The position numbers and the translations under genes were made by a program. Under the pieces are notes generated by a model. The model was not told the DNA's origin. It saw nothing but the letters and a program-made list of their open reading frames with translations, and did no database searches. Shown here in pieces: positions 49,121-64,000 of a DNA stretch of 64,000 bases. The first letter of the stretch is position 1, and every line of letters begins with the position of its first letter. Source of the stretch: Hyphomicrobiales bacterium (lineage in GTDB: Bacteria > Pseudomonadota > Alphaproteobacteria > Rhizobiales > Xanthobacteraceae); assembly GCA_003140315.1 (NCBI GenBank), contig PLJS01000101.1:4252-68251 (forward strand). The letters run 5' to 3'.

Positions 49121-49201
49121 TTGTCTTTCCATTTGGATTATCCCGTCTTAGCCTCCTTCTCGGCCTCGTCTCCGATGAGACGTTTGCTGAGGGAGGGCGT
49201 C

Positions 49202-50452
49202 ATGGCGCACGGCGTAACGTTAGAACCGACCGCCGATGAGGCCGCCGGACCTCAGACTGTCGATGCAGCCGCGTGGAAAGCCCTTATCGGCTCCGCGCTC
49301 GGCTACGCGATGGACGGTTTCGACCTGCTGATCCTCGGCTTCATGCTGCGCATGATCTCGGCCGATCTCCACCTAACGCCGGCCGAGGGCGCGTCGCTTG
49401 TCACCGCAACGCTGATCGGCGCCGTCATCGGCGGCGTGGTCTTCGGCATGTTGTCCGATCGGCTCGGCCGCGTTCGTGTCCTCACCTGGACGATCGTGCT
49501 GTTCGCGGTGTTTACCGGCATGTGCGCTCTGGCGCAGGGGTATTGGGACCTGCTCGCCTATCGCACTATCGCCGGCGTCGGGCTTGGCGGCGAGTTCGGA
49601 ATCGGCATGGCGCTGGTCGCCGAAGCCTGGCCAGCCTCAAAGCGGGCGCGCGCCTCCTCATATGTCGGTCTCGGCTGGCAACTCGGCGTTCTTGCCGCCG
49701 CTATCCTGACGCCGATCCTGCTCCCGATCATCGGCTGGCGCGGCATGTTCGCGGTCGGCATCTTCCCGGCGGTCGCGGCCTTCTTCATCCGCCAGTCGCT
49801 GCATGAGCCGGAAGTCTTCGTCCAGAAGGTCGAGAAGGCGCCGGAGCACAAGAACTCGCTTGGCCTCCTCGTGAAGGACGCCGAAACGACCAAGCTCAGC
49901 ATCGGCATGATCATTCTCTGTTCGGTGCAGAACTTCGGCTATTACGGCGTGATGATCTGGCTGCCGAATTATCTGGCGAGCCGGTTCGGCTTTGGCCTCA
50001 CCCAATCCGCCGTCTGGACCTCGGTGACGATCGCCGGCATGGCAGTCGGCATCTTCGCCTTCGGCCACATCGCGGACCGCGTCGGTCGCCGCCCGGCCTT
50101 CTTCGGCTACATGCTGATGGCCGGCGTCATGGTCGTGGTCTATTCGCGCCTGACCGATCCGATCGCGCTGCTGATCGCGGGTGCCGTGATGGGCTTTTTC
50201 GTCAACGGCATGCTCGGCGGCTATGGTGCACTGATCAGCGAGCTGTTCCCGACCGCGGCGCGCGCGACGGCGCAGAACGTCCTCTTCAACATCGGTCGTG
50301 CGGTTGGCGGAACGGGGCCGATCGTCGTCGGAGCCGTTGCGGCGGCCCTCGGCTTTGATACCGCGATCGCGCTGCTTGCGTTGCTCTACGGGCTCGACAT
50401 CGTGGCGCTCCTGCTGCTCATCCCGGAACGCCGCGGCGCGACGCTCTCGTGA
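49202..50452 (+). CDS. MFS transporter
   Basis: In-frame ATG 49202 after GGAGGG (an alternative in-frame ATG is at 49175). About 12 hydrophobic segments with MFS motifs LSDRLGRVR and ADRVGRRP. Confidence 0.85.
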   Translation: MAHGVTLEPTADEAAGPQTVDAAAWKALIGSALGYAMDGFDLLILGFMLRMISADLHLTPAEGASLVTATLIGAVIGGVVFGMLSDRLGRVRVLTWTIVLFAVFTGMCALAQGYWDLLAYRTIAGVGLGGEFGIGMALVAEAWPASKRARASSYVGLGWQLGVLAAAILTPILLPIIGWRGMFAVGIFPAVAAFFIRQSLHEPEVFVQKVEKAPEHKNSLGLLVKDAETTKLSIGMIILCSVQNFGYYGVMIWLPNYLASRFGFGLTQSAVWTSVTIAGMAVGIFAFGHIADRVGRRPAFFGYMLMAGVMVVVYSRLTDPIALLIAGAVMGFFVNGMLGGYGALISELFPTAARATAQNVLFNIGRAVGGTGPIVVGAVAAALGFDTAIALLALLYGLDIVALLLLIPERRGATLS

Positions 50453-50482
50453 TCGTCCGCGCTTGCCGGAGGGTTGATCTCG

Positions 50483-51355
50483 ATGCATGCCGAAGAGCCC
50501 GCGATGGGAGGGCACGCTCCGCCTATTCCGGATAGCACGCTCCCTGGCGGCGAATGGTCGGCAGCTATCGCGGCGGAGCTCGCCGAGGTTCTCGCCAACA
50601 CGGCGATCAATACCGAATACCGCCATCTGGTGGTGAAGTGCGGGCGGCCGGCGCTCGACGCGGTGCCGGGACAGTTCTTTCAATTGCTGTGCCCGCAGCC
50701 TGCGGGCGAGCAGCCCTATCTGCGCCGTCCGATGAGCCTGTACGGCGTTGACCCGGACGCCGGCACTGTCGAGTTTCTCTACAAGATTGCGGGCGCGGGC
50801 ACCCGCGGTCTCGCGATGCTGCATCCCGGCGACCGGCTCGACATCATGGGTCCGCTCGGCGTCGGCTTCTCGCTCGATCCGGCCTGGAAGCACATCGTGG
50901 CGGTCGGTCGCGGCGCTGGACTTGCCACGCTCGCGCCGCTCGCCAAGGCGGCGCGCGCCAAAGGCATGCACGTCACCGCAATCTTCAGCGCGCGCCGGCC
51001 GGATCTCGTGCTCTCGGTCGAGCTCTTCCAGAGCCAGGGCGCGACCGTCATTCCGGTCACCGACACCGAGCGCACCAGCGGTCCGGCGCATGTGGAGCGG
51101 CTCCTGCGCGGACTGATCGCCGAGCAGCGCTGCGATGCCTTCTTCACCTGCGGTTCGAGCCGACTGATGCGCGTGCAGCAGCGCCTCGCGACGGAGTTCG
51201 GTCTGCGCGGACAAGTTGCGATGGAGCAGCAGATGGCCTGCGGGATCGGCCTTTGTTTCTGCTGTGTGCGCGATTTCAACGTCAAGGGCGAGATCGTTCA
51301 CCGCCGCGTCTGCTGGGATGGTCCGGTGTTCGACATCCTGGAGGCGATCCCGTGA
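50483..51355 (+). CDS. PyrK-like FAD/NAD-binding, 2Fe-2S electron-transfer subunit (dihydroorotate dehydrogenase B type)
   Basis: In-frame ATG 50483 after GGAGGG. Ferredoxin-reductase-type fold (RRPMSL, GPLG) and a C-terminal cluster motif MACGIGLCFCCV typical of PyrK. Confidence 0.75.
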   Translation: MHAEEPAMGGHAPPIPDSTLPGGEWSAAIAAELAEVLANTAINTEYRHLVVKCGRPALDAVPGQFFQLLCPQPAGEQPYLRRPMSLYGVDPDAGTVEFLYKIAGAGTRGLAMLHPGDRLDIMGPLGVGFSLDPAWKHIVAVGRGAGLATLAPLAKAARAKGMHVTAIFSARRPDLVLSVELFQSQGATVIPVTDTERTSGPAHVERLLRGLIAEQRCDAFFTCGSSRLMRVQQRLATEFGLRGQVAMEQQMACGIGLCFCCVRDFNVKGEIVHRRVCWDGPVFDILEAIP

Positions 51356-51368
51356 TCGGCCGCGCCCC

Positions 51369-52319
51369 GTGACCGATCTTTCGGTGCGCATCGGTTCGCT
51401 GACGCTCGCGAACCCCGTGATGCCCGCCTCCGGCACCTTCGCCGAAGGTCTCGAGCGGGTCATGGATTTCAGCAGACTCGGCGCTTTCGTGACGAAGACG
51501 ATCACGCGCGAGCTGCGCACCGGCAATCCGCTTCCGCGCGTCGTGGAGCGCCCGGGTGGGCTGATCAATGCGATCGGCATCCCATCCAAGGGCGTTCCCT
51601 ATTTCGTCGAGCACACGCTGCCGCACTACGCGCCCTACAGCGTCCCGCTCGTCGTCAGCATCTCGGCGCCGACTGCGGAAGGCTTCGCGAGTCTCGCTGC
51701 GGAGCTCAGCGCTGTGCCCGGCATCGCGGTGATCGAGGCGAACATCTCCTGTCCGAACATCGAAGAGGACGGTAAGGCCTTCGCGATGCGGGCCGGCTCG
51801 ACCGAAGCCGTCGTGCGCGCGCTCCGCGCGGCGACGAAGCTGCCGTTGTGGGTCAAGCTGACGCCGAACACGGGCGACTTGCCTGAAGTCGCAGCGGCCG
51901 CCGAACTCGCCGGCGCGGATGCGCTCGTCGTCGCCAATACGATCCTAGCGATGGCGATTGACCTGAACACATTCCAGCCTTCGCTCGGCAACGTTATGGG
52001 CGGACTTTCCGGGCCCGCCATCAAGCCGATCGTGCTGCGGCAGGTTTATCAATGTGCCCGTGTCGTGAAGCTTCCGATCATCGGCTGCGGCGGGATAGCG
52101 ACCGCCGACGATGCGGCCGAATACATGCTGGCGGGTGCGACCGCAGTGCAGGTCGGCACCGCGACATTCGTGCAGCCGGCCGCCATGATCTCCGTCATCG
52201 ACGGCTTGGCGAAGTTCTGCGAGCGGCGCGACATCGCGCGCGTATCAGACTTGGTCGGCGCGGTACGCAACGAGGAGACCGACGAGGCGGACCTCGAATG
52301 GGTCGCGCCGCCGCAATGA
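51369..52319 (+). CDS. class 1B-type dihydroorotate dehydrogenase catalytic subunit homologue (PyrD-1B/PreA-like, without a ferredoxin domain)
   Basis: In-frame GTG 51369 within ORF 51216..52319. Motifs NPVMPASGTF, EANISCPN (active-site Cys context), PLWVKLTPN and IGCGGI. The stop overlaps the next gene's start (ATGA at 52316-52319). Confidence 0.8.
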   Translation: MTDLSVRIGSLTLANPVMPASGTFAEGLERVMDFSRLGAFVTKTITRELRTGNPLPRVVERPGGLINAIGIPSKGVPYFVEHTLPHYAPYSVPLVVSISAPTAEGFASLAAELSAVPGIAVIEANISCPNIEEDGKAFAMRAGSTEAVVRALRAATKLPLWVKLTPNTGDLPEVAAAAELAGADALVVANTILAMAIDLNTFQPSLGNVMGGLSGPAIKPIVLRQVYQCARVVKLPIIGCGGIATADDAAEYMLAGATAVQVGTATFVQPAAMISVIDGLAKFCERRDIARVSDLVGAVRNEETDEADLEWVAPPQ

Positions 52320-53575
52320 ACGCCGATGCGGACCGGATCCTGTGCGAAGAGCTGTTCGATGCATTGAGGACGGCCACGTTTGACGGCGTCGGCATCACCC
52401 GCGACGCGTACGGGCCGGGCGAATCCCTCGCGCTCGATATCGTCGAGCGCGCCGCCCGCGCGGCCGGCCTCGCGACCGAGCGCGACGCCGGCGCCAATCT
52501 CGTCGCGACGCTCCCCGGAACAGAACCCGCGCTTCCCTTCATCGCCTGCGGATCGCATCTCGATTCCGTGCCGCAGGGCGGCAATTTCGACGGCGGCGCC
52601 GGCGTGGTCGCCGGTCTTGCGATTCTCGCCGGCTTTTTGCGCGAGGGTTTCAGGCCACGACGCACGCTCAAGCTCTATGGTCTGCGCGGTGAGGAAAGCG
52701 CTTACTTCGCCCGCGCCTATGTGGGATCGAGCGCGCTGTTTGGGCAGTTGACGGCCGCCGACCTCGCGAGCCGGCACGCGGTCACTGGACGGTCGCTTGC
52801 GGATTGTATGCGCGACGTCGGTGCCGACGTCGACCGCATCGGCCATGGAGAAGCTCTCCTCGATCCCGCGACGGTCGCCGCCTGGCTGGAACTCCATATC
52901 GAGCAGGGCCCCGTCCTCGTCGCCCGCGACCTGCCGCTCGGGATCGTCACCGGCATCCGCGGCAACGTCCGCCACCGGGTCGTGGAATGCATCGGCGAAG
53001 CGGGGCACTCGGGCGCGGTCCCGCGCTGGCTGCGCCGCGACGCGGTGTTTGCCACGGCCGAGCTCATCACTCATCTTGACCGGCATTGGCGTACACTGCT
53101 CGAACGCGGCCGCGACCTCGTCGTCACATCCGGCATCGTCGGCACCGACCCGGCCGAGCACGCGATCGCGCGTATCCCGGGGATGGTGCGGTTCAGCTTC
53201 GAGGCGCGCAGCCAGAACGTCGAGACGCTGGAGGCGTTCTATGATCTCTTCTTGTCGGAATGCGAGGGAATCGGAGAAGAGCGTGGCGTGACGTTCAAGC
53301 TCGAACGCAGGATCGAATCGGCGCCGGCGACCATGGATCCGACCTGGATCGAGCGGCTGCGCGGCGCCGCCCGCTCGTTGGGCCTGCCGGACGAGACGAT
53401 TCCGAGCGGCGCCGGCCATGACGCCGCGGTGTTCGCCGGAGCCGGCGTGCCGAGCGCGATGGTCTTCGTGCGCAATGAGAATGGCTCGCACAATCCGCAG
53501 GAAGCCATGACTCTCGACGACTTCCTCGCCGGCGTATCGGTGATGCGTGCGGCGATCGCGGAGGCGGCGCAGTGA
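52316..53575 (+). CDS. M20-family Zn amidohydrolase of the hydantoinase/carbamoylase group (N-carbamoyl-L-amino-acid or allantoate amidohydrolase-like)
   Basis: In-frame ATG 52316. Motifs GSHLDSVPQGGNFDG, ELHIEQG, GEAGHSG and SGAGHDA. Confidence 0.85.
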   Translation: MNADADRILCEELFDALRTATFDGVGITRDAYGPGESLALDIVERAARAAGLATERDAGANLVATLPGTEPALPFIACGSHLDSVPQGGNFDGGAGVVAGLAILAGFLREGFRPRRTLKLYGLRGEESAYFARAYVGSSALFGQLTAADLASRHAVTGRSLADCMRDVGADVDRIGHGEALLDPATVAAWLELHIEQGPVLVARDLPLGIVTGIRGNVRHRVVECIGEAGHSGAVPRWLRRDAVFATAELITHLDRHWRTLLERGRDLVVTSGIVGTDPAEHAIARIPGMVRFSFEARSQNVETLEAFYDLFLSECEGIGEERGVTFKLERRIESAPATMDPTWIERLRGAARSLGLPDETIPSGAGHDAAVFAGAGVPSAMVFVRNENGSHNPQEAMTLDDFLAGVSVMRAAIAEAAQ

Positions 53576-54669
53576 GCCTCGATCGGATGTTTGACAGTGC
53601 GGCCGGCGCGGCAGCCAAGACGCAAGGCGATTGCATCACCATCCGTCGCCCGGACGACTGGCACGTCCACCTGCGCGACGGCGACATGCTGCGCAGCGTG
53701 CTCCCGTTCACGGCAGCGCAGTTCGCGCGCGGGATCATCATGCCGAACCTCGTGCCGCCGGTGACGACGCCCGAGATGGCCGCCGCCTATCGGGCGCGTA
53801 TCGTCGCCGCGCTGCCGGAGGGCAGCGACTTTCAGCCGCTGATGACCTGCTATCTGACCGACACCACGTCGCCCGACGCGATCGAGCGCGGCTACGCGGA
53901 AGGCATCTGGGTCGCCGCCAAGCTCTATCCGGCCGGCGCGACCACCAACGCGCACCACGGCGTGACGAGCATCATCGGCATCGCGCCGGTCCTGGAGCGC
54001 ATGGAGCGCATCGGCATGAAGCTCCTCATCCATGGCGAGGCGACCGATCCGTCGGTCGACATCTTCGACCGCGAGGCGGTTTTCATGGAGACCGAACTGC
54101 TGCCGCTGCTTGTTCGCCATCCCGGCCTGAAGGTGGTCGTCGAGCATGCGACGACGGCCGAAACGCTGGACATCGTGCGGGCGAACGCCGTGCGGGCTGC
54201 GGCGACGATCACGCCGCATCACCTCGTCATCAACCGGACGTCGATCTTCCAGGGCGGGCTGCGCCCGCATCTCTACTGCCTGCCCGTCGCCAAGCGCGAG
54301 TGCCATCGCCTCGCGCTGCGCGCTGCCGCGACCTCGGGCGAGGCGTGCTTCTTCATCGGCACCGATACGGCCCCACATCCCCGCCGCAACAAGGAACGCG
54401 AATGCTGCGCCGCCGGCGCATTCGTCGGCGCGAGCGCGCTGCAATGCTACGTCCAGGTCTTCGACGAAGAAGGCGTGCTGGACCGCTTCGAGGCTTTTGC
54501 TTCGCTCAACGGCGCGCGCTTCTACGGGCTCGAAGCGAACTCCGGAACGATCACGCTTCAACGCCGCCCGAGCCATGTGCCGCAAGCCGTGCCGATCGAT
54601 GGCGACGAGGTCGTGGTCTTTCGCGGCGGCGAGATCTTGCCATGGTCGATCGCGGAGGTGCGGGCGTGA
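53572..54669 (+). CDS. pyrC: dihydroorotase, homodimeric class II (E. coli PyrC type)
   Basis: Contains ITIRRPDDWHVHLRDGDML, MPNLVPPVTT, MTCYLTD and AAKLYPAGATTN, which closely resemble E. coli-type PyrC. There are 4-nt overlaps at both ends. Confidence 0.88.
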   Translation: MSLDRMFDSAAGAAAKTQGDCITIRRPDDWHVHLRDGDMLRSVLPFTAAQFARGIIMPNLVPPVTTPEMAAAYRARIVAALPEGSDFQPLMTCYLTDTTSPDAIERGYAEGIWVAAKLYPAGATTNAHHGVTSIIGIAPVLERMERIGMKLLIHGEATDPSVDIFDREAVFMETELLPLLVRHPGLKVVVEHATTAETLDIVRANAVRAAATITPHHLVINRTSIFQGGLRPHLYCLPVAKRECHRLALRAAATSGEACFFIGTDTAPHPRRNKERECCAAGAFVGASALQCYVQVFDEEGVLDRFEAFASLNGARFYGLEANSGTITLQRRPSHVPQAVPIDGDEVVVFRGGEILPWSIAEVRA

Positions 54670-55690: not shown

Positions 55691-55976
55691 CCAAATAACG
55701 ACCACCGGCTAACCAAGCCGAAGCATCCCTGGACCAATGGTCAGGTCGAGAGAATGAACCGAACCATCAAAGACCACGGTGCAGCGATTCTATTACGAAA
55801 TCCACGATCAACTCCGCCGACACCTCGCCGACTTCGTCGCCGCTTACAACTTTGGCCGCCGACTGAAGACCCTCAAGGGCCTCAAGCCTTACGAACACAT
55901 CTGCAAAACCTGGACATCCCAACCAGAGCGCTCCACCCTCAACCCGCTCCACCAAATGCCGGGACTAAACAACTAG
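55688..55976 (+). mobile_element. 3' fragment of an IS481-family transposase (rve integrase core end), frameshifted
   Basis: ..HRLTKPKHPWTNGQVERMNRTIKD.. continues in another frame as ..QRFYYEIHDQLRRHLADFVAAYNFGRRLKTLKGLKPYEHICK..HQMPGLNN. A 1-nt indel lies near 55774. No 5' part or terminal repeats are seen. Confidence 0.7.
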
Positions 55977-56755
55977 TCCGTCGCCAGCGCCAGTGCGCGC
56001 ACCGGACTGCCGCTCCCGCGCAAGATTTTCAACGGTGCCGCGATGAGGACAGCCCCGGTCGGTGGCAGCAGGTCGAGATTCGCAAGGCATTGCAACCCGT
56101 AGCGGCCGGCGCCGTGCATGAAGGTGTGGCACGGATAAGGAGGGCGGAACTGCGCCGCCTGTCCGGCGTCGGTGCCGATCGTCTCGGTGCCGAAGCCGAG
56201 TACATCACGTTCTTCGACGAGGAAGCGTACGGCGCGCGCATCCGGCCCCGGCGTGTGCTGGCCGGTCTCGTCGAAATTCTGGTAGGCGACCGGATCGCTG
56301 CGTTTCGACCAGTCCGAACGCATCAGCACCCAGGCGCCGGCCGGGACCTTGCCGTGCCGGTTCTCCCAGGCACGGAGATGTTCGGCGGTGAGCAGGAAGT
56401 CCGCGTCGCGCGCCGACTCCGCCGAACAATCGATCACGCACGCCGGTGCGATGAACGACGCAGGCGGCATGGTATCGGTCGTATTGTTCGGCAGATCGCG
56501 ACCACTGATCCAATGAACCGGTGCGTCGAAATGCGTGCCGGTGTGCTCGCCGAACGAAAGGTTGTTCCAGTACCAGCCGGGGCCGCGCTCGTCGTAGCGC
56601 GAGATTTCTTCCACGCGGAACGGCGCACATTGATCGAACTCGGGCGGCAGCACGATCTGCGGGAAGCGCGACGACAGCGTTTGCGACAGATCGACGACGC
56701 GCACGCCTCCGGCGGCGAGCGCGCCGGCAAGCTCGCTGAGAAGCGCGGCGCTCAT
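55973..56755 (-). CDS. cyclase-family protein (kynurenine-formamidase-like metal hydrolase)
   Basis: In-frame ATG 56755 overlaps the upstream stop (ATGA). Contains the family's hallmark motif, GEHTGTHFDAPVHW. Confidence 0.85.
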   Translation of the reverse strand: MSAALLSELAGALAAGGVRVVDLSQTLSSRFPQIVLPPEFDQCAPFRVEEISRYDERGPGWYWNNLSFGEHTGTHFDAPVHWISGRDLPNNTTDTMPPASFIAPACVIDCSAESARDADFLLTAEHLRAWENRHGKVPAGAWVLMRSDWSKRSDPVAYQNFDETGQHTPGPDARAVRFLVEERDVLGFGTETIGTDAGQAAQFRPPYPCHTFMHGAGRYGLQCLANLDLLPPTGAVLIAAPLKILRGSGSPVRALALATD

Positions 56756-57996
56756 TGGTCCCACAATTCGCGTTCGAGCACTTTGGCGCTCTCGCGAAAG
56801 CGCGTCACGATGTCCTGCGCGACGTCGCCCGGATAGACGTCTTCGATGCCGTCGCGCAGCGCGGCAACGATGGCCTCCGCGAGCGCCACTGGTGCGAGCT
56901 TCGGCGGTGGCACAAGCTGGTTCCATTCGTCGTCGATCGGACCGGGGAAGACATTCACCACACGGATCCCAGCGTGGCGCATCTCGGCGCGCAGGTTTTG
57001 CGACAGCGCGAAGGCCGCAGCTTTCGTGGCCGAAAACGTGCCGTGCGAAGGCAGCGCCGAGAGTGCATGAATCGACAGCAGATTGACCCAGGCGGTAGCC
57101 GGCGCCGAACCCTCTGCCGCCCGCACACGCATCGCGGGGCCGAACGCTTGGGCGAGGCGCAGGAGACCCAGATAATTCACCTCCATTTCGGCGCGCGCGG
57201 TCTCGGTGCCGCGATCCACGACGGTGTGCGTTCGATGAAATTCCGCAGTGTTGATCAGGATATCGACCTTGCCGCCGATGACGCCGGCCAATTCCTCGAC
57301 CGATTTCTCGTCGGTCACGTCGAGCGGCACGATTTCGATTTGCTTCAGCTTCGTCAGCGCATCGAATCCGGGCGCCTGCTTCCACGGCTCGGCGACGCCG
57401 ACCCAAACGATATCGGCGCCGGCTTCGACCATCGCCATCGCAACCGCCTGCCCGACGGCGGGTTTCCCGTCGGTGACGAGCACCTTGCGGAATTTCGGAT
57501 CGCTGGTCATCTCGCGCAACATTGGATCGTCCGCCATGTTCGCCGTATCCTCCGCGGGGAGCGCGATCAGCACGGCCTGCCCGCTCTTGTCGAGATGCGC
57601 GCTTACACGCACGCGCGATGGCGCCGCCGCGCAGTCGCCCTGCAGATGCACGAGCAGGGCTGGTCCGGCATCGAGCCGCACCGTTCCGAGCCGCAGTGGC
57701 ACGCGTTCGCGATAGTAAAGTTCGTTCGAGTGATGCAGGACCGTGCCGGAGATCAATTCACCCGCGCCGTTGGTCTCACGCCATTCGAGCCGGTGCGACA
57801 GGCACGTCACGCAGGCCGAGCGTGATGGATATTGAACCGTGCCGCAATCAGCGCAATGCTGCAGCTCAAGGCGGCCTTCGGCGGCGGCGGCCGTGAGCCG
57901 CAGTGCCGACCGGCTGCGCGCCGGAGGCGGCAATGTCGGCAGCCGCAGCGCGCTGACGGGGTTGCGCGGTTTCGGTTTGATGAGCGCCGGCGTCAT
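56752..57996 (-). CDS. fusion of a DUF35-type Zn-ribbon/OB-fold domain with a degenerate SDR-like domain
   Basis: In-frame ATG 57996. N-terminal Zn ribbon CADCGTVQYPSRSACVTC plus an OB region. The C-terminal Rossmann-like domain reads VTDGKPAVGQA in place of TGxxxGxG and FSATK in place of YxxxK. Confidence 0.8.
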   Translation of the reverse strand: MTPALIKPKPRNPVSALRLPTLPPPARSRSALRLTAAAAEGRLELQHCADCGTVQYPSRSACVTCLSHRLEWRETNGAGELISGTVLHHSNELYYRERVPLRLGTVRLDAGPALLVHLQGDCAAAPSRVRVSAHLDKSGQAVLIALPAEDTANMADDPMLREMTSDPKFRKVLVTDGKPAVGQAVAMAMVEAGADIVWVGVAEPWKQAPGFDALTKLKQIEIVPLDVTDEKSVEELAGVIGGKVDILINTAEFHRTHTVVDRGTETARAEMEVNYLGLLRLAQAFGPAMRVRAAEGSAPATAWVNLLSIHALSALPSHGTFSATKAAAFALSQNLRAEMRHAGIRVVNVFPGPIDDEWNQLVPPPKLAPVALAEAIVAALRDGIEDVYPGDVAQDIVTRFRESAKVLERELWDQ

Positions 57997-59156
57997 GGCG
58001 CGCCCAAAATCGCGGCGCCGCTGCACAGGCCGCGATCGTAGTTGACCATGCCGAAGCCGCTGACGAGGCCACGCCGCGCCTTCTCAACCTTTGCGCCGAG
58101 AGTATGTCCGGTGAGCTGCCGCACCGCCTCGGTCAGGCCGAGATAGCCGCCGGCCGCGCCGGCCTGCCCGACCGACAACTGCCCCCCGGAGGTGTTGAGT
58201 GGCAGCGTTCCGCCGACGGTAAACGTGTTGCGCCGCACGAAGTCCACGCCCTCACTTTTCGGACAGAAACCGAGGTCCTCAAGCTGCATGACCTCGATCA
58301 CCGGATAGTCGTCGTAGACCTGAACGAAATCCATGTCGGCCGCGCCGACGCCAGCCTGTGCATAAAGATCGTCGCAATCGAGCGTCCAGCCGCCGCGCAG
58401 CTGGATCGGATCGTCGGGAAACGCATTGTGCCGTTCGATGGCGCCAAGGATGCGTGCGAAGGAGAGATCGAGCCGGCGCGCTTCCGCCTCGGTCATTACA
58501 AGGAAGCCTTCGGCGCCTGCGCACGGCATTACGCAGTCGAACAGCTTCAGCGGATCGGCGATCGGACGGGCATTGAGATAGTCGTCGAGCGTCAGCGGCT
58601 TCTTGAACAGCGCGTGCGGAAACATCAGGGCGTTGTCGCGCTGCGCGACGCAAAGTTTACCGAAGTCCGCGGCTTCGATGCCGCATTGGTTCATATAATA
58701 GGACGTCAGCAACGCAAAGCTTGCGTTCGGCCCGCCCGCGCCGAACGGATAGACCGCGTCGCGCGCAAAGCGGCTGAAGTTCGCAAGATTTTGTCGAAAA
58801 GAATCCACATGATTGGTGTCGCCCGCGATGCAGGCAACGATCTCAGCGTCACCCGCCTGCACAGCGCGCGCCGCGCGACGCAGAGCCACCACACCGCAGG
58901 CGCCGCCCATCGGAATGTGATCGAGCCAGCGTGGCGAGAGGCCGAAATGCTGCGTCAGGCCGACCGCCGTATCGGGAAACAGCGTGAAGCTCGACACGCA
59001 CAAACCATCCAATCGGCTCTTCTTGATGCCCGCACTCTTCATCAGCGCCGCAAGCACGCGGCCGAGAAACCAATGCGCATCCTTCGTAGAGTAACGGACA
59101 TAAGGAATCGTCACCGGGGCGGCGATCACCACTCCTTCATAGGAAGCGCGGCTCAT
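57993..59156 (-). CDS. thiolase-like protein of the SCP-x/lipid-transfer (Ltp) type
   Basis: 387-aa ORF with MGGACGVVAL (nucleophile Cys context) and NTSGGQLSVGQAG near the C-terminus. It partners with the DUF35 gene downstream. There are 4-nt overlaps at both ends. Confidence 0.8.
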   Translation of the reverse strand: MSRASYEGVVIAAPVTIPYVRYSTKDAHWFLGRVLAALMKSAGIKKSRLDGLCVSSFTLFPDTAVGLTQHFGLSPRWLDHIPMGGACGVVALRRAARAVQAGDAEIVACIAGDTNHVDSFRQNLANFSRFARDAVYPFGAGGPNASFALLTSYYMNQCGIEAADFGKLCVAQRDNALMFPHALFKKPLTLDDYLNARPIADPLKLFDCVMPCAGAEGFLVMTEAEARRLDLSFARILGAIERHNAFPDDPIQLRGGWTLDCDDLYAQAGVGAADMDFVQVYDDYPVIEVMQLEDLGFCPKSEGVDFVRRNTFTVGGTLPLNTSGGQLSVGQAGAAGGYLGLTEAVRQLTGHTLGAKVEKARRGLVSGFGMVNYDRGLCSGAAILGAP

Positions 59157-60793
59157 GCGCGCGCTTTCTCGCGCAGGGTCGCCTTGAAGGCGCGCAGGTC
59201 AATCGTGCGGGGCGCACCGACCGCGGTTGCTGCGAGCGCCTTGATCGCGCCGCGCTGAAGCTTTTGCGTCGGTGTGATCGGGATCGTGTCGACTAAGGCG
59301 ACGTAGCCCGGCACCTTGTGATAGGCGAGCCGCTCCGCGCAGGCGCGCGCGATGTCCTCGGCAAATGCACGCGCATCGCGCGGCTTTACGCGCGGCACGA
59401 TCAGCGCGAGCACTTCCTCGCCGCGCATCTCGTCCGGCACCGGCGCGACCGCCACACCGACGACGCTGTCAAGATTTGAGAGCACGCCCTCGACCTCGAT
59501 CACCGCAATATTCTCGCCGGAGCGGCGCACAATGTTCTTCTTGCGGTCAACGAAGAACAGCGTGCGGTCATCACCCTCGTAAATGACATCGCCGGTGTGG
59601 AACCAGCCACTCTCCCAGGCTTCGGCGGTCGCGGCTTCGTCCTTCAGGTATTCCAGGAAGAAGCCGCGTCTTGGTTCGTCGCCTTTTTTCCGTACCAGCA
59701 GCTCGCCCGAAGTACCCTGTCTCACGTCCGCGCCCGCGTCGTCGACGATGCGATAATCCATCGTGGCCGTCGCACGGCCGATGCAGCGCTTGCCGACGTG
59801 GCGCGGCCCGCCCGCCGTCGACGTAACGGCGCCGCCGCCCGTCTCGGTCATCGCCCAAGCCTCGATCAGCGGAAACTTAAAGCGCGTCTCGAACGTCTCC
59901 TGATGGCGCGGATCGACTCCCGCGCCGAACCCGAATCGCACGTCGTGTGCCGTTTCAGAGTCTTCCCTCGGTAGCTGCAGCAAAATCGCCGGCATCACAC
60001 CGAGATAGTGGACCACGGTTGCGCAGGATTCCTTCACCGTGCGCCACCAGCGCCGTGCGTGGAAGCGATCGAGTGGCACGACCGTGCCGCCCTTCAGGAT
60101 CATGCCGAGGACCGTGCAGCCGAGCGCGTTCATGTGGAACATCGGCAGCGGCGTCAGCACGGTTTCGGCGTTGTCACACATCGTGGCTTCGCCGCCCTGG
60201 GAAACGTACCAGTCGGCAATGCGCAGGAAATAGTCGTTCGAGAGCATGCAGCACTTGGGCTTCGCGGTCGTGCCCGACGTGAACAGCAACGCGCAAGGGT
60301 CGTCCAGTTCGGCCGTCTGGCGCGTCACAGTCGCGTGGCACGCGGGTGGCGGATCGTCAGGGCCGATGATGCGCCCCGCCCCGTCCCATGCTTTCGCGAT
60401 CAGCGGATGCGTCTCCGGCAATGCGACCGCAAGGTGCGGTTCGACGATCGAAAGCTGATAGGCAAGATCATCCACGCGCAAATCCGGATTGATCGGCAGA
60501 ATCGAGACGCCAAGCGCGTTAAGCGCGAGCCAGTGCCATATGAACTCAGGTCGATTTTCCAGAAGCAACGCCACGCAGGCGCCCCGGCCATAGCCTGCCG
60601 CCGCATAGGCGCGCCGCAACGCCTCGATGCGCGTTAGCCCCTCGCCGTAGGTGTGAGCGAATCCGTCCGGCGCGTAGGGCAATTCGGCTGCCGCCGGCGC
60701 GCGCAGAAAGATCGCATTAGGCCGCGCGGCCGCCTGCGCCTCAAGCGCCTCGTAGGGCGAGAACGCATCCCTTCGTTGCAGACCTTCCGACAT
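59153..60793 (-). CDS. AMP-dependent acyl-CoA synthetase/ligase
   Basis: 546-aa ORF with the AMP-binding motif LLFTSGTTAKPK, plus GWFHTGD and VDRKKNIVRRSGENI. Confidence 0.9.
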   Translation of the reverse strand: MSEGLQRRDAFSPYEALEAQAAARPNAIFLRAPAAAELPYAPDGFAHTYGEGLTRIEALRRAYAAAGYGRGACVALLLENRPEFIWHWLALNALGVSILPINPDLRVDDLAYQLSIVEPHLAVALPETHPLIAKAWDGAGRIIGPDDPPPACHATVTRQTAELDDPCALLFTSGTTAKPKCCMLSNDYFLRIADWYVSQGGEATMCDNAETVLTPLPMFHMNALGCTVLGMILKGGTVVPLDRFHARRWWRTVKESCATVVHYLGVMPAILLQLPREDSETAHDVRFGFGAGVDPRHQETFETRFKFPLIEAWAMTETGGGAVTSTAGGPRHVGKRCIGRATATMDYRIVDDAGADVRQGTSGELLVRKKGDEPRRGFFLEYLKDEAATAEAWESGWFHTGDVIYEGDDRTLFFVDRKKNIVRRSGENIAVIEVEGVLSNLDSVVGVAVAPVPDEMRGEEVLALIVPRVKPRDARAFAEDIARACAERLAYHKVPGYVALVDTIPITPTQKLQRGAIKALAATAVGAPRTIDLRAFKATLREKARA

Positions 60794-60905
60794 CCAACGT
60801 TCCGGCCAGACTCGCTCGATGCTCAGCTTACCGTATCTTTGCTCAGCGGCCTTCGCGCCTTTATTCTATGCTGAATCCGGGACTTCAAGGCAGGGACTTC
60901 CCGAC

Positions 60906-62003
60906 ATGGCAGGCGCAGCCGTTCATCCGATGCATGGACCGAACAAGCTCAAGCTCGGCGTCTTCTCGCTGAATTCGGACGGCGGGCTGACGCTGACAAA
61001 GGTGCCGGAGCGCTGGCCTGCGACCTGGAACGAGATCGTTGAGGTGTCGCAACTCGCGGATCGCGCGGGCTTCGAGTTCCTGCTGCCGATCGCGCGCTGG
61101 AAGGGATTTGGCGGCGAGATGAACAGCCGCGAATGGTCGTTCGAGACGCTGACGCATGCAGCCGCACTCGCAGGCGTGACGAAGAATATCGGCGTGTTCG
61201 CGACCGTGCACGTGCCGATGATACATCCGGTGTTCGCCGCGAAGGCGCTGACGACGGTTGACCACGTGTCGAACGGGCGCGCGGGGCTGAACATTGTGTG
61301 CGGCTGGAATCCCGAAGAATTCGGCATGTTCGGGCTCGCGCTGATCGAGGGGCGCTACGAGCAGGGACTCGAATGGTTCGAGATCATGAACCGCATCTAC
61401 ACGGCGGATGCGCCCTTCGACTATGACGGCAAGTTTTACAAGCTGAAGGCCGTGTCGGGGAAACCGCGCCCGGTGCAGCAGCCGCGCCCTATCACCCTCA
61501 ATGCTGCGTTCTCGCCGCCGGGCCGCGAGTTCGCCGCCAAGGCTGCGGATTATCTGTTCACGACCTTCACCGAGATCGACAAGGGCCGCGAACATATCGA
61601 GGACATGAAGAAACGCGCGGCGGCCGAGAAGCGCCAGGTTGGGGTCTTCACGACGTGCCATGTGGTGTGTCGCCCGACCCAGGCAGAAGCCGAGGCGTAT
61701 TACGAGTACTACGCGGTGACGATGGCCGACAAGGCGAGCCTCGATCATTACGTGAAGCAGAAGCAGACCTTCTCGGGCTCGCATGACGAGGAAGCCTACC
61801 GACTGCACCGCAAGCGCTTCGCGGCCGGCGCCGGGACTTATCCGCTGGTTGGGACGCCTGCCTTCATCGCGGATCAGATGGTGAAGATTTCGCGCGCGGG
61901 CTTTGCGGGCACCACCGTGTCGTTTGTGAATTTCAAGAACGAACTGCCGTATTTTATCGACAACGTGCTGCCGTTGCTGAAAGAAGCAGGCCTACGCATG
62001 TAG
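60906..62003 (+). CDS. LLM-class (luciferase-like) flavin-dependent monooxygenase
   Basis: In-frame ATG 60906 (an alternative in-frame ATG is at 60930). KLGVF.., ..ADRAGFEFLLPIARW.. and ..DHVSNGRAGLNIVCGW.. are typical of the NtaA/SsuD/DszA-like LLM family. Confidence 0.85.
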   Translation: MAGAAVHPMHGPNKLKLGVFSLNSDGGLTLTKVPERWPATWNEIVEVSQLADRAGFEFLLPIARWKGFGGEMNSREWSFETLTHAAALAGVTKNIGVFATVHVPMIHPVFAAKALTTVDHVSNGRAGLNIVCGWNPEEFGMFGLALIEGRYEQGLEWFEIMNRIYTADAPFDYDGKFYKLKAVSGKPRPVQQPRPITLNAAFSPPGREFAAKAADYLFTTFTEIDKGREHIEDMKKRAAAEKRQVGVFTTCHVVCRPTQAEAEAYYEYYAVTMADKASLDHYVKQKQTFSGSHDEEAYRLHRKRFAAGAGTYPLVGTPAFIADQMVKISRAGFAGTTVSFVNFKNELPYFIDNVLPLLKEAGLRM

Positions 62004-62006
62004 GCC
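61989..62006. terminator. hairpin spanning the 12-bp overlap of two convergent genes (possible bidirectional terminator)
   Basis: GGCCTAC (61989-61995) pairs with GTAGGCC (62000-62006), with loop GCAT. Both stop codons (TAG at 62001-62003 on plus, CTA at 61992-61994 on minus) lie in the stems. Confidence 0.4.
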
Positions 62007-63809
62007 CTGCCACACCTCGGCGGGATCGTCCGGCGGAACGGCCGCGAGCAGCATACGCGTGTACTCATGCGCAGGCGCGGCAAATACCTGTTCGGTTGGC
62101 CCGCTTTCGACCACTTCGCCGCGATACATCACCAGCACGCGGTCGCAGAGATGGCGAACGACCGACAAGTCGTGCGAAATGAACAGCATGGAAAATTGCC
62201 GCTCGCGACGAAGCGCGGCCAGCAGATTGAGAAGTTGCGCCTGCACCGAGACGTCGAGGCCGGAGACGATCTCGTCAGCAATGAGGATACGTGGCACGGC
62301 GCAAAGCGCGCGCGCGATGTTGACGCGCTGACGCTGACCGCCGGAAAGCTGCTGCGGAAATCGCATCGCAGCCTCGGGCGGCAGACCGATTTCGCCGAGC
62401 AGCAGGTCGGCCCTTGCAAGGCGCTCCTCCCAGGTCGCGACGCCCGCCGCCTCCAGAGGCTGCGTCACGATACTGGCGACGCGGCGGCGCGGGTTCAGCG
62501 CCGATTGCGGGTCCTGAAACACCATTTGCACATGGCGGCGGCGGTGCTCGTCGAAGTCGGGATGGCTCGCGTCGTGCCCGGCAATGGCGATGCGACCCTG
62601 CGACGGCGTCTCCAAACCGACGATCAGCCGCGCCAAGGTGCTCTTGCCGCTGCCGCTCTCGCCCACAATGCCGATAAACTCGTTCTCGTGGAGCGAGAAG
62701 CCGACATCGCTCAGGGCCGCGACTTCGGAACGGCGCAACAGGCCGCCCGCGACGAAGCGTTTGCCGAGACCTGAGACTTCGAGAACCGGCGCGGTTTGAC
62801 GCGGCTCCGCGGCGGGCACGAGCGCAGGAGCCGCGATACGCGCGGTTTTGTCGGCGCGGATGCAGGCCGCGGCGTGGTTAGGGCCGACCTCGACGAGTGG
62901 CGGCATCGCGCGGGTGCAGTCCTCGATCACGTTGGGGCAACGCGGCGCGAAGGCGCAGCCCTTGATCCCGTTCCAGGCGCGCAACCCCGGCATGCGCTCC
63001 GGCAGTGCGTAAAGCCCGCGGCGCTTGCCGCTCATCGCGGGGTTCGCGAGTTGCAGGCAGCGCGTGTAGGGATGACCGGACGTCGCAAACACCTGCCGCG
63101 CCGGCCCGTATTCAACGGCGCGACCCGCATAGAGCACAAGGATGTCGTCGCACACCTGCGCGGCGAGCCGCAGGTCATGGGTGATGAACACCACCGCGGT
63201 GTTCTCACGCTCCTGCATCTCGGCGATGAGCCGCACGATGCGCGCCTGGATCGTCACGTCGAGCGCGGTGGTCGGCTCGTCTGCGATCACGAGCTTCGGC
63301 TTGCTGGCGAACGCGAACGCGATCAGCACGCGCTGACACATTCCGCCGGAGAGCTGGTGCGGATAGCGCCTCAGCAGGTCGGCGGCATGCGGCAAATGGA
63401 CCGCATCAAACAATTCGAGCATTCGCGGGCGTCGGTCTCCCGCCGCGACCCCGATACGCGCCAGATGCTCGTCGAATTGAGTGCGGATGGTCAGCACCGG
63501 ATTGAGCGCCGAGAGCGGCTCCTGCGGAATGAAGGCGATCTCGCGGCCGAGCAGCGCGCGGCGTGCCTCGGGCTCCATCGTGACGAGATTAGCCTCGGAA
63601 AATACGAGGCTTCCGCCGCTCACGGCGAAACCGGAGGGGAGCAATTGCGCCACGGTGCGGCCGACCATCGATTTGCCGGCACCGGATTCGCCGACCAATC
63701 CGAGCATCTTTCCGGCTTTCAGTGTGAACGACAGATCACGAATGACCGGCACGCGCCCGCCATCGAGCGATGCCGAAACGGTGAGATCGCGAGCGACCAG
63801 CAGGCCCAT
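61992..63809 (-). CDS. duplicated (two-cassette) ABC ATP-binding protein of Dpp/Opp peptide/nickel type
   Basis: In-frame ATG 63809. Two Walker A motifs (GESGAGKS, GESGSGKST) and two signatures (LSGGMCQRVLIAFA, LSGGQRQRVNIARAL). Confidence 0.9.
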   Translation of the reverse strand: MGLLVARDLTVSASLDGGRVPVIRDLSFTLKAGKMLGLVGESGAGKSMVGRTVAQLLPSGFAVSGGSLVFSEANLVTMEPEARRALLGREIAFIPQEPLSALNPVLTIRTQFDEHLARIGVAAGDRRPRMLELFDAVHLPHAADLLRRYPHQLSGGMCQRVLIAFAFASKPKLVIADEPTTALDVTIQARIVRLIAEMQERENTAVVFITHDLRLAAQVCDDILVLYAGRAVEYGPARQVFATSGHPYTRCLQLANPAMSGKRRGLYALPERMPGLRAWNGIKGCAFAPRCPNVIEDCTRAMPPLVEVGPNHAAACIRADKTARIAAPALVPAAEPRQTAPVLEVSGLGKRFVAGGLLRRSEVAALSDVGFSLHENEFIGIVGESGSGKSTLARLIVGLETPSQGRIAIAGHDASHPDFDEHRRRHVQMVFQDPQSALNPRRRVASIVTQPLEAAGVATWEERLARADLLLGEIGLPPEAAMRFPQQLSGGQRQRVNIARALCAVPRILIADEIVSGLDVSVQAQLLNLLAALRRERQFSMLFISHDLSVVRHLCDRVLVMYRGEVVESGPTEQVFAAPAHEYTRMLLAAVPPDDPAEVWQGLHA

Positions 63810-63810
63810 A

Positions 63811-64000
63811 TTACGCCCGCCGCGTTTCGGTGAGGCGCACGTCGAGCGCGCGGCGCAGCCCATCGCCCAGCACGTTGAAGCCGAGCACCGTGATGAAGAT
63901 CATCAGGATCGGAAACACCAGATTCCAGGGCGAGTCGTAGATATATTGCCGCGCGTCGGCGATCATCTGGCCCCAGGCGGGCGTGTTCGCGCCCACGCTC
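63811..64000 (-). CDS. ABC permease C-terminus (DppC/OppC-like), continues beyond the window
   Basis: The translation ..PWNLVFPILMIFITVLGFNVLGDGLRRALDVR.. is typical of DppC/OppC C-termini. The stop lies 1 nt before the ATPase start. Confidence 0.75.
   Translation of the reverse strand, partial: SVGANTPAWGQMIADARQYIYDSPWNLVFPILMIFITVLGFNVLGDGLRRALDVRLTETRRA

Follow-up and report, generated by a model that had tools for sequence, protein, structure and literature searches.

The 64,000-nucleotide stretch of DNA analysed here (the window) comes from contig PLJS01000101.1 (positions 4,252 to 68,251 of the forward strand) of assembly GCA_003140315.1, a Hyphomicrobiales bacterium of the Xanthobacteraceae. 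It raises the question of what is done by a protein, encoded at 56752..57996, that joins a DUF35 module, composed of a zinc ribbon and an OB fold, to a domain with a short-chain dehydrogenase/reductase (SDR) fold from which the cofactor and catalytic motifs have been lost. The original prediction, made from the sequence of the window, had viewed the SDR-like part as a non-catalytic or non-canonical pseudo-enzyme domain, recruited as an extra scaffold or ligand-binding module for the thiolase-like protein encoded next to it, and as a whole this interpretation is partly supported by the analysis reported here. The gene is identified below as an orthologue of iadH, known from the indole-3-acetate degradation (iad) locus of Variovorax. 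In the reading that we prefer, with a probability of roughly 0.6, its DUF35 part docks on the putative aldolase IadG, which would cleave dioxindole-3-acetyl-coenzyme A (CoA) to isatin and acetyl-CoA, and its SDR-like part is not a classical NAD(P) dehydrogenase.

Gene organisation and reading frame

The fusion protein is encoded by a single open frame of 414 amino acids plus stop, with its ATG at 57996, its stop codon at 56752-56754 and zero internal stops. The coordinates given in the original prediction are kept, and the strand is corrected to minus, as the plus-strand frame at 56752-57996 contains a stop and is not open. The ATG of the gene overlaps the TGA of the upstream thiolase-like gene, and its TGA overlaps the ATG of the downstream hydrolase gene, in both cases as ATGA. 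The junction between the ligase gene and the thiolase-like gene has the same form, and the three stop/start overlaps therefore indicate that the four genes of the module are translationally coupled. The module and the parts of the fusion protein are the following:

59153..60793, minus strand: IadF-like AMP-forming acyl-CoA ligase (PF00501, PF13193)
57993..59156, minus strand: IadG-like thiolase-fold protein with Gly84-Gly85, Y281-D-D-Y284, Gln326 and Gln331 (phmmer, Foldseek, alignments)
56752..57996, minus strand: IadH-like gene, DUF35 (zinc ribbon and OB fold) plus SDR-fold domain (open reading frame, translation, Pfam, AlphaFold2 (AF2) model)
57892..57996, minus strand: N-terminal arm of the fusion, residues 1-35 (AF2 secondary structure; predicted local distance difference test (pLDDT) 75-87)
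57784..57891, minus strand: rubredoxin-like zinc ribbon, residues 36-71, with Cys48, Cys51, Cys62 and Cys65 (PF12172)
57556..57783, minus strand: OB-fold part of DUF35, residues 72-147 (PF01796; strands of the model at 70-147)
56755..57504, minus strand: SDR-fold domain, residues 165-414, with TDGKPAVG (175-182), NTAE (249-252), Asn274, Ser308, Phe321 and Lys325 (adh_short, VIA-align)
55973..56755, minus strand: IadI-like isatin hydrolase of the Pfam 'putative cyclase' family (PF04199, phmmer)

It is extremely improbable that the fusion is an artefact of annotation or sequencing, that is, two genes joined by a missed stop or a frameshift. The frame is single in the window, as the original prediction had assumed, and the fusion is likewise one open frame in 76 genome loci and 28 metagenome loci, with the structural model confident across the junction. 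A survey of the architecture had been suggested as a check, and 115 of the 120 best matches in a 90%-clustered database carry all four Pfam domains. No support for an artefact was found; the remaining five of these 120 relatives are shorter (349-352 amino acids) and lack only the ribbon match, and they may reflect start-codon calls or contig ends.

The DUF35 part and its putative thiolase-fold partner

The N-terminal part of the protein matches zf-ChsH2 (PF12172) at residues 36-71 (45.3 bits, curated cut-off 23.2, E 7.5e-12) and OB_ChsH2_C (PF01796) at residues 72-129 (35.4 bits, cut-off 27.1), which bears out the ribbon and OB-like region that had been recognised there from the letters. The strings quoted in the original prediction (CADCGTVQYPSRSACVTC, VTDGKPAVGQA, INTAE, EVNYLG, LLSIHAL and FSATK) are all present in the translation. 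The ribbon spacing, given there as CxxC-x12-CxxC, is wrong by two residues: it reads C48-x2-C51-x10-C62-x2-C65, and CxxC-x10-CxxC is the canonical spacing quoted in the paper on Sal (PMC11321319/PMC12329534). Of 36 family representatives, 35 have all four zinc-binding cysteines, and the one that does not is truncated at its N-terminus. Residues 28-131 align to the ChsH2(DUF35) chain of the Ltp2 complex (6ok1_B, E 5.7e-7), which is the best PDB match of residues 1-150 and is followed by the DUF35 chain of the archaeal thiolase/3-hydroxy-3-methylglutaryl-CoA synthase complex, by Shy DUF35 and by three PhlB-type chains. These six best matches are all DUF35 subunits in entries with a thiolase-fold protein, in agreement with the proposal that the DUF35 part is of the thiolase-partner type. 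The OB region aligns to 6ok1_B, 6esq_E and 9myr_B. Because the SDR domain filled both fold-search result lists, DUF35 membership is assigned from Pfam and sequence. The N-terminal arm that precedes the ribbon is without regular secondary structure through residue 28 in the AF2 model, and contains a PxLPPxxRSR stretch that is conserved in a 46-sequence alignment (A1).

The thiolase-like protein encoded directly upstream has as its best PDB matches in phmmer 9myr_A (Sal, E 1.7e-47) and 6ok1_A (Ltp2, E 1.1e-38), and the same two entries are the top two in a Foldseek search with its model (pLDDT 77.1). Entry 9MYR is the Sal-Shy(DUF35) bile-acid aldolase and entry 6OK1 the Ltp2-ChsH2(DUF35) steroid aldolase. 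A nucleophilic Cys is absent from the neighbour: Gly85 aligns with the Cys of the true thiolase 7yvy, and Sal also has Gly-Gly at this place. The catalytic Tyr of the YDxx motif is retained, since Tyr281 aligns with Tyr294 of Ltp2 and with the Tyr of the YDCY motif of Sal. The YDDYPV motif to which it belongs is invariant in 73 of 73 rows, and G84, G85, Q326 and Q331 are invariant in a 20-row alignment (A3); the Gln pair of Sal (GGQ...GQ) is also present in the neighbour. The second catalytic residue is not matched, with Asp283 in the column of Sal Cys304 and Gly in that of Ltp2 Tyr344. By these comparisons the neighbour is closer to the Sal/Ltp2 aldolases than to a thiolase and is probably a retro-aldolase, and its YDDY looks like a third active-site variant of the thiolase-fold aldolases, beside the YDCY of Sal and the YDHF of Ltp2.

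For the Sal system it has been reported that the DUF35 domain alone co-purifies with Sal and that Sal expressed alone gives a low yield (PMC11321319). DUF35 contributes to the walls of the substrate cleft in that system, and Shy, which has its DUF35 at the N-terminus, is encoded directly downstream of sal (PMC11321319/PMC12329534), the same layout as that of iadG and iadH.

The SDR-fold domain and the loss of its motifs

Residues 165-414 belong to the Rossmann-type SDR fold, as seen from an adh_short match at residues 171-358 (82 bits, cut-off 26.6) and from structural comparison of the AF2 model of the whole protein, which was built on a 46-sequence alignment and has a mean pLDDT of 92.8 and a predicted template modelling score of 0.92. 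The closest solved structure to this domain is 5u4s_B (VIA-align Z 34.0, root mean square deviation 1.5 Å, 236 residues aligned, 36% identity; Foldseek E 2.5e-23 for 5u4s), and the other SDR entries listed by VIA-align have Z 25-28. None of the curated NCBIfam SDR models reaches its cut-off, the best being NF006118 with 167.4 bits vs 279. The inter-domain stretch (residues 141-170) has a pLDDT of 92-95, and the two domains are therefore predicted to pack rigidly and in a fixed orientation.

The degeneration of the cofactor and catalytic motifs, described in the original prediction for this one protein, is borne out and extends across the family. The classical TGxxxGxG cofactor motif is absent and replaced by TDGKPAVG, its first Gly being Asp in 76 and Asn in 1 of 77 orthologues (a tally that includes the window's own gene). 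The classical NNAG motif is likewise absent, with NTAE in its place and the Gly replaced by Glu in 73 and by Asp in 4 of the 77. Of the Asn-Ser-Tyr-Lys tetrad, Asn274, Ser308 and Lys325 are present and the Tyr column is occupied by Phe321; HMMER alignments to solved SDRs confirm this Tyr-to-Phe exchange, which had been read by eye, and put Lys325 in the Lys column. At the catalytic Tyr site, Phe is found in 71 of the 77 orthologues and Tyr in 6. In the wider family, sampled by 36 representatives of 50% clusters, Asp occupies the TG site of 28; the Lys is retained in 4 and the Tyr together with the Lys in 3.

Canonical motifs are found in 17 of 18 standalone SDRs of this subfamily and in 3 of 72 fusions. 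The 18 are matches that begin beyond residue 125 of P0152, are 235-275 amino acids long and have no more than 25 amino acids of open frame ahead of them. In a quick tree of the SDR domain (90 rows, SH-aLRT branch support, unrooted and given a midpoint root for drawing only), the groups were defined by the motif itself and rows P0186, P0215 and P0222 were left out of them. Within it the three canonical fusions group with the standalone enzymes, and a single branch has all 66 'TD'-type fusions on its other side. The state in which Tyr and Lys are both kept is scattered, with 6 changes of which at least 3 are forced by well-supported branches. Apparently, the cofactor motif was lost once, and the catalytic Tyr and Lys were then lost repeatedly. 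Judged from its sequence, the SDR-like domain is likely not a classical NAD(P) dehydrogenase.

Synteny and identity as IadH

Synteny was counted over 80 genome loci, the denominators being the loci with room for the neighbour in question. The thiolase-like gene, whose adjacency had been pointed out in the window, immediately precedes the fusion in 73 of 75 loci (exceptions: L005, with a split match, and L074, with none), and in 71 of 74 the fusion is immediately followed by the isatin-hydrolase gene (exceptions: L005, L073 and L074). A ligase gene is found upstream in 56 of 67 loci, its product being 44-52% identical to the ligase of the window. In L074 (5482-6753), an orthologue of the fusion with 64% identity stands without a thiolase-like or cyclase gene nearby, and in L087 and L105 two tandem cyclase genes follow the fusion (71-72% and 61% identity). 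The gene downstream of the fusion in the window is identified as an isatin hydrolase by a phmmer match to 5nna, 'isatin hydrolase A', that spans its whole length (residues 3-260, E 1.6e-110). IadI itself is treated as a kynurenine-formamidase-like broad amidase in a preprint (PMC12633357), and its orthologue in the window matches crystallised isatin hydrolases with the E value just given.

Over residues 1-411, the fusion shares 64-67% identity with the gene that Variovorax loci carry between iadG and iadI, and for the G-H-I core as a whole the identity to iadG-H-I of Variovorax is 65-75%. In locus L010, from Variovorax sp. KK3, the genes follow one another in the order indolepyruvate-oxidoreductase-like gene (DUF6537), 2Fe-2S reductase, Rieske alpha, Rieske beta, ligase, thiolase-like gene, fusion, cyclase, SDR and solute-binding proteins. 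This corresponds to iadA/B, C, D, E, F, G, H, I, J, K2 as published (compared with Table 2 of PMC12852158). Given the full-length similarity and the shared F-G-H-I order, the gene in the window is therefore an IadH orthologue. The possibility that IadH is a paralogue of IadJ was rejected, since a BLASTP alignment of the two covers only 85 residues, with 34% identity, and the YSATK of IadJ is normal; an 'iadH' of Pseudomonas LY1 (PMC8383072) was set aside as an unrelated naming of iac genes.

In a 50%-clustered library 199 clusters match the fusion at E <= 1e-30, and among one-genome-per-species contigs at least 599 stretches match the search patterns and at least 554 encode a relative. A match is present in 10 of the 41 genomes around the window's own; by rank, the counts are 5 of 16 for other members of the genus and 8 of 24 for the same family, and this patchy presence among related genomes marks the gene as accessory. 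The sole other zf-ChsH2 match in the genome (G000:C126:2873-2971, 29 bits, in a 177-amino-acid open frame) points to a second, standalone DUF35 protein elsewhere in it. A metagenome locus (L082:2187-7834) encodes a DUF35-SDR fusion with canonical TGAAGGIG, NNAG and YCASK motifs; this gene adjoins a ligase gene and a gene for a YDDY aldolase-like protein, followed by a MarR-like gene and a Rieske oxygenase, and an isatin hydrolase is missing from the locus. In the passages on fusion of a preprint on archaeal fatty-acid synthase (10.1101/2024.07.05.601840), no DUF35-ketoreductase fusion was found.

The flanks of the module contain further genes. Divergent to the ligase gene lies a gene for a luciferase-like, flavin mononucleotide (FMN)-dependent monooxygenase (SfnG/NtaA-like, 60819-62003, plus strand), and beyond it, next to the monooxygenase gene, one for a double (Opp-type) ATP-binding cassette (ABC) ATPase (61992-63863, minus strand). 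Two genomes from the window's genus keep both of them beside the module, at 88-91% and 78-80% identity; standing in for iadCDE and iadJ, they may provide the substrate or take it up. In other alphaproteobacterial loci the partner of the G-H-I core is an HpaB-type hydroxylase or a medium-chain (MDR) dehydrogenase. Just downstream of the isatin hydrolase gene, at about 55700-55780 on the plus strand and inside a long spurious open reading frame, there is a short match to the integrase core rve_3 (E 6.3e-5, below the Pfam cut-off), which may be an insertion-sequence remnant that marks the end of the module. Further on, a plus-strand run of genes (49121-54669) encodes a major facilitator superfamily transporter, a DHODB-type Fe-S subunit, a dihydroorotate-dehydrogenase-like protein, an M20 peptidase and an amidohydrolase, and has the look of a catabolic cluster of its own, directed at a cyclic amide or a pyrimidine-like compound.

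A model for side-chain removal and its alternatives

The requirement for iadH in the conversion of indole-3-acetate to anthranilate has been shown for V. paradoxus CL014 (PMC12633357, Jiang et al., bioRxiv preprint). In the same work, deletion of iadF, G, H or I in Variovorax lowers anthranilate and leads to accumulation of C10H9NO4, dioxindole-3-acetic acid, and no further intermediates were detected. The authors 'resorted to annotated enzyme function' and described IadG as a ketothiolase, IadH as an alcohol dehydrogenase and IadI as a broad amidase, with a 'reductive removal' of the side chain. The entries in Table 2 of PMC12852158 read 'short-chain dehydrogenase/reductase' for iadH, 'thiolase' for iadG and 'cyclase family protein' for iadI. 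Dioxindole, isatin, isatinic acid and anthranilate were detected by Conway et al. 2022. A description of IadH as a DUF35 protein or of IadG as an aldolase was not found in the literature searched, the supplementary data of Jiang et al. on isatin detection lying outside that search. The IadH family is known genetically, and its DUF35 architecture, its motif loss and its likely role are without description in this literature.

In the model that we propose for this step, the ligase would produce dioxindole-3-acetyl-CoA, a 3-hydroxyacyl-CoA with a tertiary alcohol, and the N-terminal zinc ribbon and OB fold of IadH would dock on the IadG dimer, by analogy with Shy-DUF35 on Sal and ChsH2-DUF35 on Ltp2. 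Indirect evidence for such a complex comes from the adjacency of the two genes in 73 of 75 loci and from their ATGA overlap. The hydroxyl of this thioester is carried by a quaternary carbon and is not oxidisable to the 3-oxoacyl-CoA that a thiolase requires. The IadG-IadH pair would cleave it by a retro-aldol reaction to isatin and acetyl-CoA, with Tyr281 of IadG as the candidate base and Asp283 at the position of the catalytic Cys of Sal; the elements balance (C10H9NO4 = C8H5NO2 + C2H4O2). The hydrolase would then open isatin to isatinate. In this scheme the C-terminal SDR-fold domain would lack classical NAD(P) binding and be kept as a rigidly attached structural or ligand-binding module, and dioxindole (C8H7NO2), being reduced isatin, may form adventitiously or by a non-canonical activity. 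A retro-aldol cleavage to isatin matches the aldolase-like IadG, the isatin hydrolase next door and the build-up of the C10 acid in the iadH deletion, which is expected if IadH is an obligate DUF35 partner of the aldolase.

A number of observations weigh against the part of this model that concerns the SDR-like domain, and they are drawn on by an alternative in which the domain is a working, non-canonical reductase that binds NAD(P)H in an unusual way, uses a residue other than the classical Tyr and reduces isatin to dioxindole after side-chain cleavage, or performs another redox step. C8H7NO2, a formula that fits dioxindole, builds up in the iadI deletion and in the strain that expresses iadCDEFGH_JK2 (PMC12633357), both of which carry iadF, G and H and lack iadI, and its formation needs a reduction somewhere. 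Asn274 and Ser308, whose persistence had been noted in the original prediction, are present in all 77 orthologues and Lys325 in 75, and the Tyr is retained in 6 of the 77 and in 9 of the 28 metagenome fusions. Conservation among orthologues is no lower in the SDR-like domain than in the DUF35 part (mean entropy 0.51 vs 0.69), and 26 motif and pocket positions, chosen by the analyst and then compared with random position sets from the same domain, have an entropy of 0.24, which only 0.4% of the random sets match. This conservation of domain and pocket argues against a functionless relic; in the wider set of 36 representatives it is the DUF35 part that is more conserved (1.75 vs 2.11). The closest structure, 5u4s, was crystallised with NADP despite a Leu in its Tyr column. 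Finally, the canonical-motif fusion of L082 sits beside a YDDY aldolase-like gene, so an active SDR can accompany such a partner, and this locus may represent a version of the system with its SDR domain still active. The claim that the SDR-like part is a pseudo-enzyme domain accordingly stands as far as the loss of the motifs is concerned, and 'non-catalytic' is unproven, given the kept Asn, Ser and Lys, the Tyr of some orthologues and the conserved pocket. We nevertheless consider a reductase unlikely. Two Gly sites of the dinucleotide crevice carry acidic replacements (Asp or Asn at 176 and Glu or Asp at 252, each in 77 of 77), and the alternation of Phe and Tyr among close orthologues (the changes counted on the quick tree) is one that a catalytic base should not tolerate. 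Formation of dioxindole would moreover lead away from isatin, the substrate of the conserved hydrolase, and deletion of iadH accumulates the uncleaved C10 acid, with no report of accumulating isatin found in the literature read.

A second alternative leaves the chemistry as it is and concerns the substrate: in the genome of the window the module would not serve auxin degradation and would act on another 3-hydroxy acid, supplied by the divergent FMN-dependent monooxygenase. What speaks for it, and against our preferred reading, is that no iadCDE or iadJ was found beside the window's module, the best IadD match in the genome being 37% identical (contig C26) and the best IadJ match 36% (contig C309), so that we infer the substrate in this genome. 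The conserved monooxygenase and Opp-type ABC ATPase of the two same-genus genomes, and the pairing of the core with an HpaB-type hydroxylase or MDR dehydrogenase in other Alphaproteobacteria, point the same way. The whole-length match to isatin hydrolase A (E 1.6e-110) and the 65-75% identity of the core to Variovorax iadG-H-I make isatin as product the simplest reading, however, and another oxygenase or the environment could be just as good a source of dioxindole-3-acetate. We regard this alternative as rather unlikely.

In a further reading, the pocket of the SDR-like domain would have been converted rather than lost. The conserved Asp176 and Glu252 in the dinucleotide crevice, together with the kept Asn, Ser and Lys, would then form a site that does not accept NAD(P) and instead holds either the oxindole product or the CoA thioester by its nucleotide end. 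As a pseudo-enzyme adaptor in an assembly of ligase, aldolase and hydrolase, IadH would hand isatin over from the aldolase to the isatin hydrolase. We rate this tentative reading as unlikely; if true, such channelling would explain why free intermediates between dioxindole-3-acetate and the C8 product went undetected in the published work.

Comparison with known systems

With the iad pathway, Variovorax and Bradyrhizobium remove auxin within the root microbiome, and work to engineer it into other bacteria of the root is under way. Its published side-chain removal step was assigned from database names alone, as a ketothiolase plus an alcohol dehydrogenase acting in a 'reductive removal'. The evidence from sequence points instead to a DUF35-partnered retro-aldolase of the Sal/Ltp2 kind, whose isatin product would feed isatin hydrolase, with IadH as the docking subunit. 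If true, this would change the reading of the published step and bears on the genes needed in a minimal engineered pathway. By the comparisons made here, the module in the window is a variant of the DUF35-partnered thiolase-fold aldolase systems, and the SDR fold is a third partner domain added to the hydratase-linked DUF35 aldolase systems.

The nearest relative is IadH of the Variovorax iad locus, which has the same F-G-H-I gene order, the same domain architecture and the same degenerate motifs as the gene in the window. It differs in its neighbours, as iadCDE and iadJ are present there and not beside the window's copy. In the literature read it is named 'alcohol dehydrogenase' or 'short-chain dehydrogenase/reductase' and given a reductive role, with DUF35 and motif loss unmentioned (PMC12633357, PMC12852158).

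The Shy-Sal system of Comamonas testosteroni (PDB 9MYR) shares with the window an N-terminal DUF35 followed by a second domain, encoded directly downstream of a thiolase-fold aldolase without the nucleophilic Cys. The second domain of Shy is an active MaoC hydratase, whereas that of the protein in the window has the SDR fold with its catalytic motifs lost. The ribbon of Shy is of the Cys3His type and that of the fusion Cys4, and the YDCY motif of Sal corresponds to YDDY in the thiolase-like neighbour. Long flexible inter-domain linkers are described for Shy (PMC11321319/PMC12329534), whereas rigid packing is predicted by the model for the protein in the window. ChsH2(DUF35)-Ltp2 (6OK1) has a Cys4 ribbon with the same x10 spacing, and the Tyr of its YDHF motif aligns with Tyr281 of the neighbour. 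In contrast to the fusion, where DUF35 is N-terminal, the DUF35 of ChsH2 is C-terminal to a MaoC domain, and Tyr344 of Ltp2 is replaced by Gly in the neighbour.

In anaerobic toluene degradation (BbsAB/BbsCD), a DUF35 zinc-finger subunit, BbsA, and a thiolase-fold protein, BbsB, are encoded beside an SDR pair, and BbsB is among the PDB matches of the window's thiolase-fold protein. BbsB is described as a true thiolase and BbsCD as an active dehydrogenase, and the DUF35 and pseudo-SDR parts are separate proteins there. The title of a paper by von Horsten et al. (2021) attributes inactive pseudoenzyme subunits to the BbsCD pair. The inactive subunit is reportedly BbsC. The SDR of Burkholderia cenocepacia J2315 crystallised with NADP (5u4s), whose entry title states no function, shares with the window's SDR-fold domain the C-terminal PPPK and G-x-[ED]-[ED]-V-Y signatures and has its Tyr replaced by Leu; unlike that domain, it is a standalone protein with canonical TGADRGLG and NNAG motifs.

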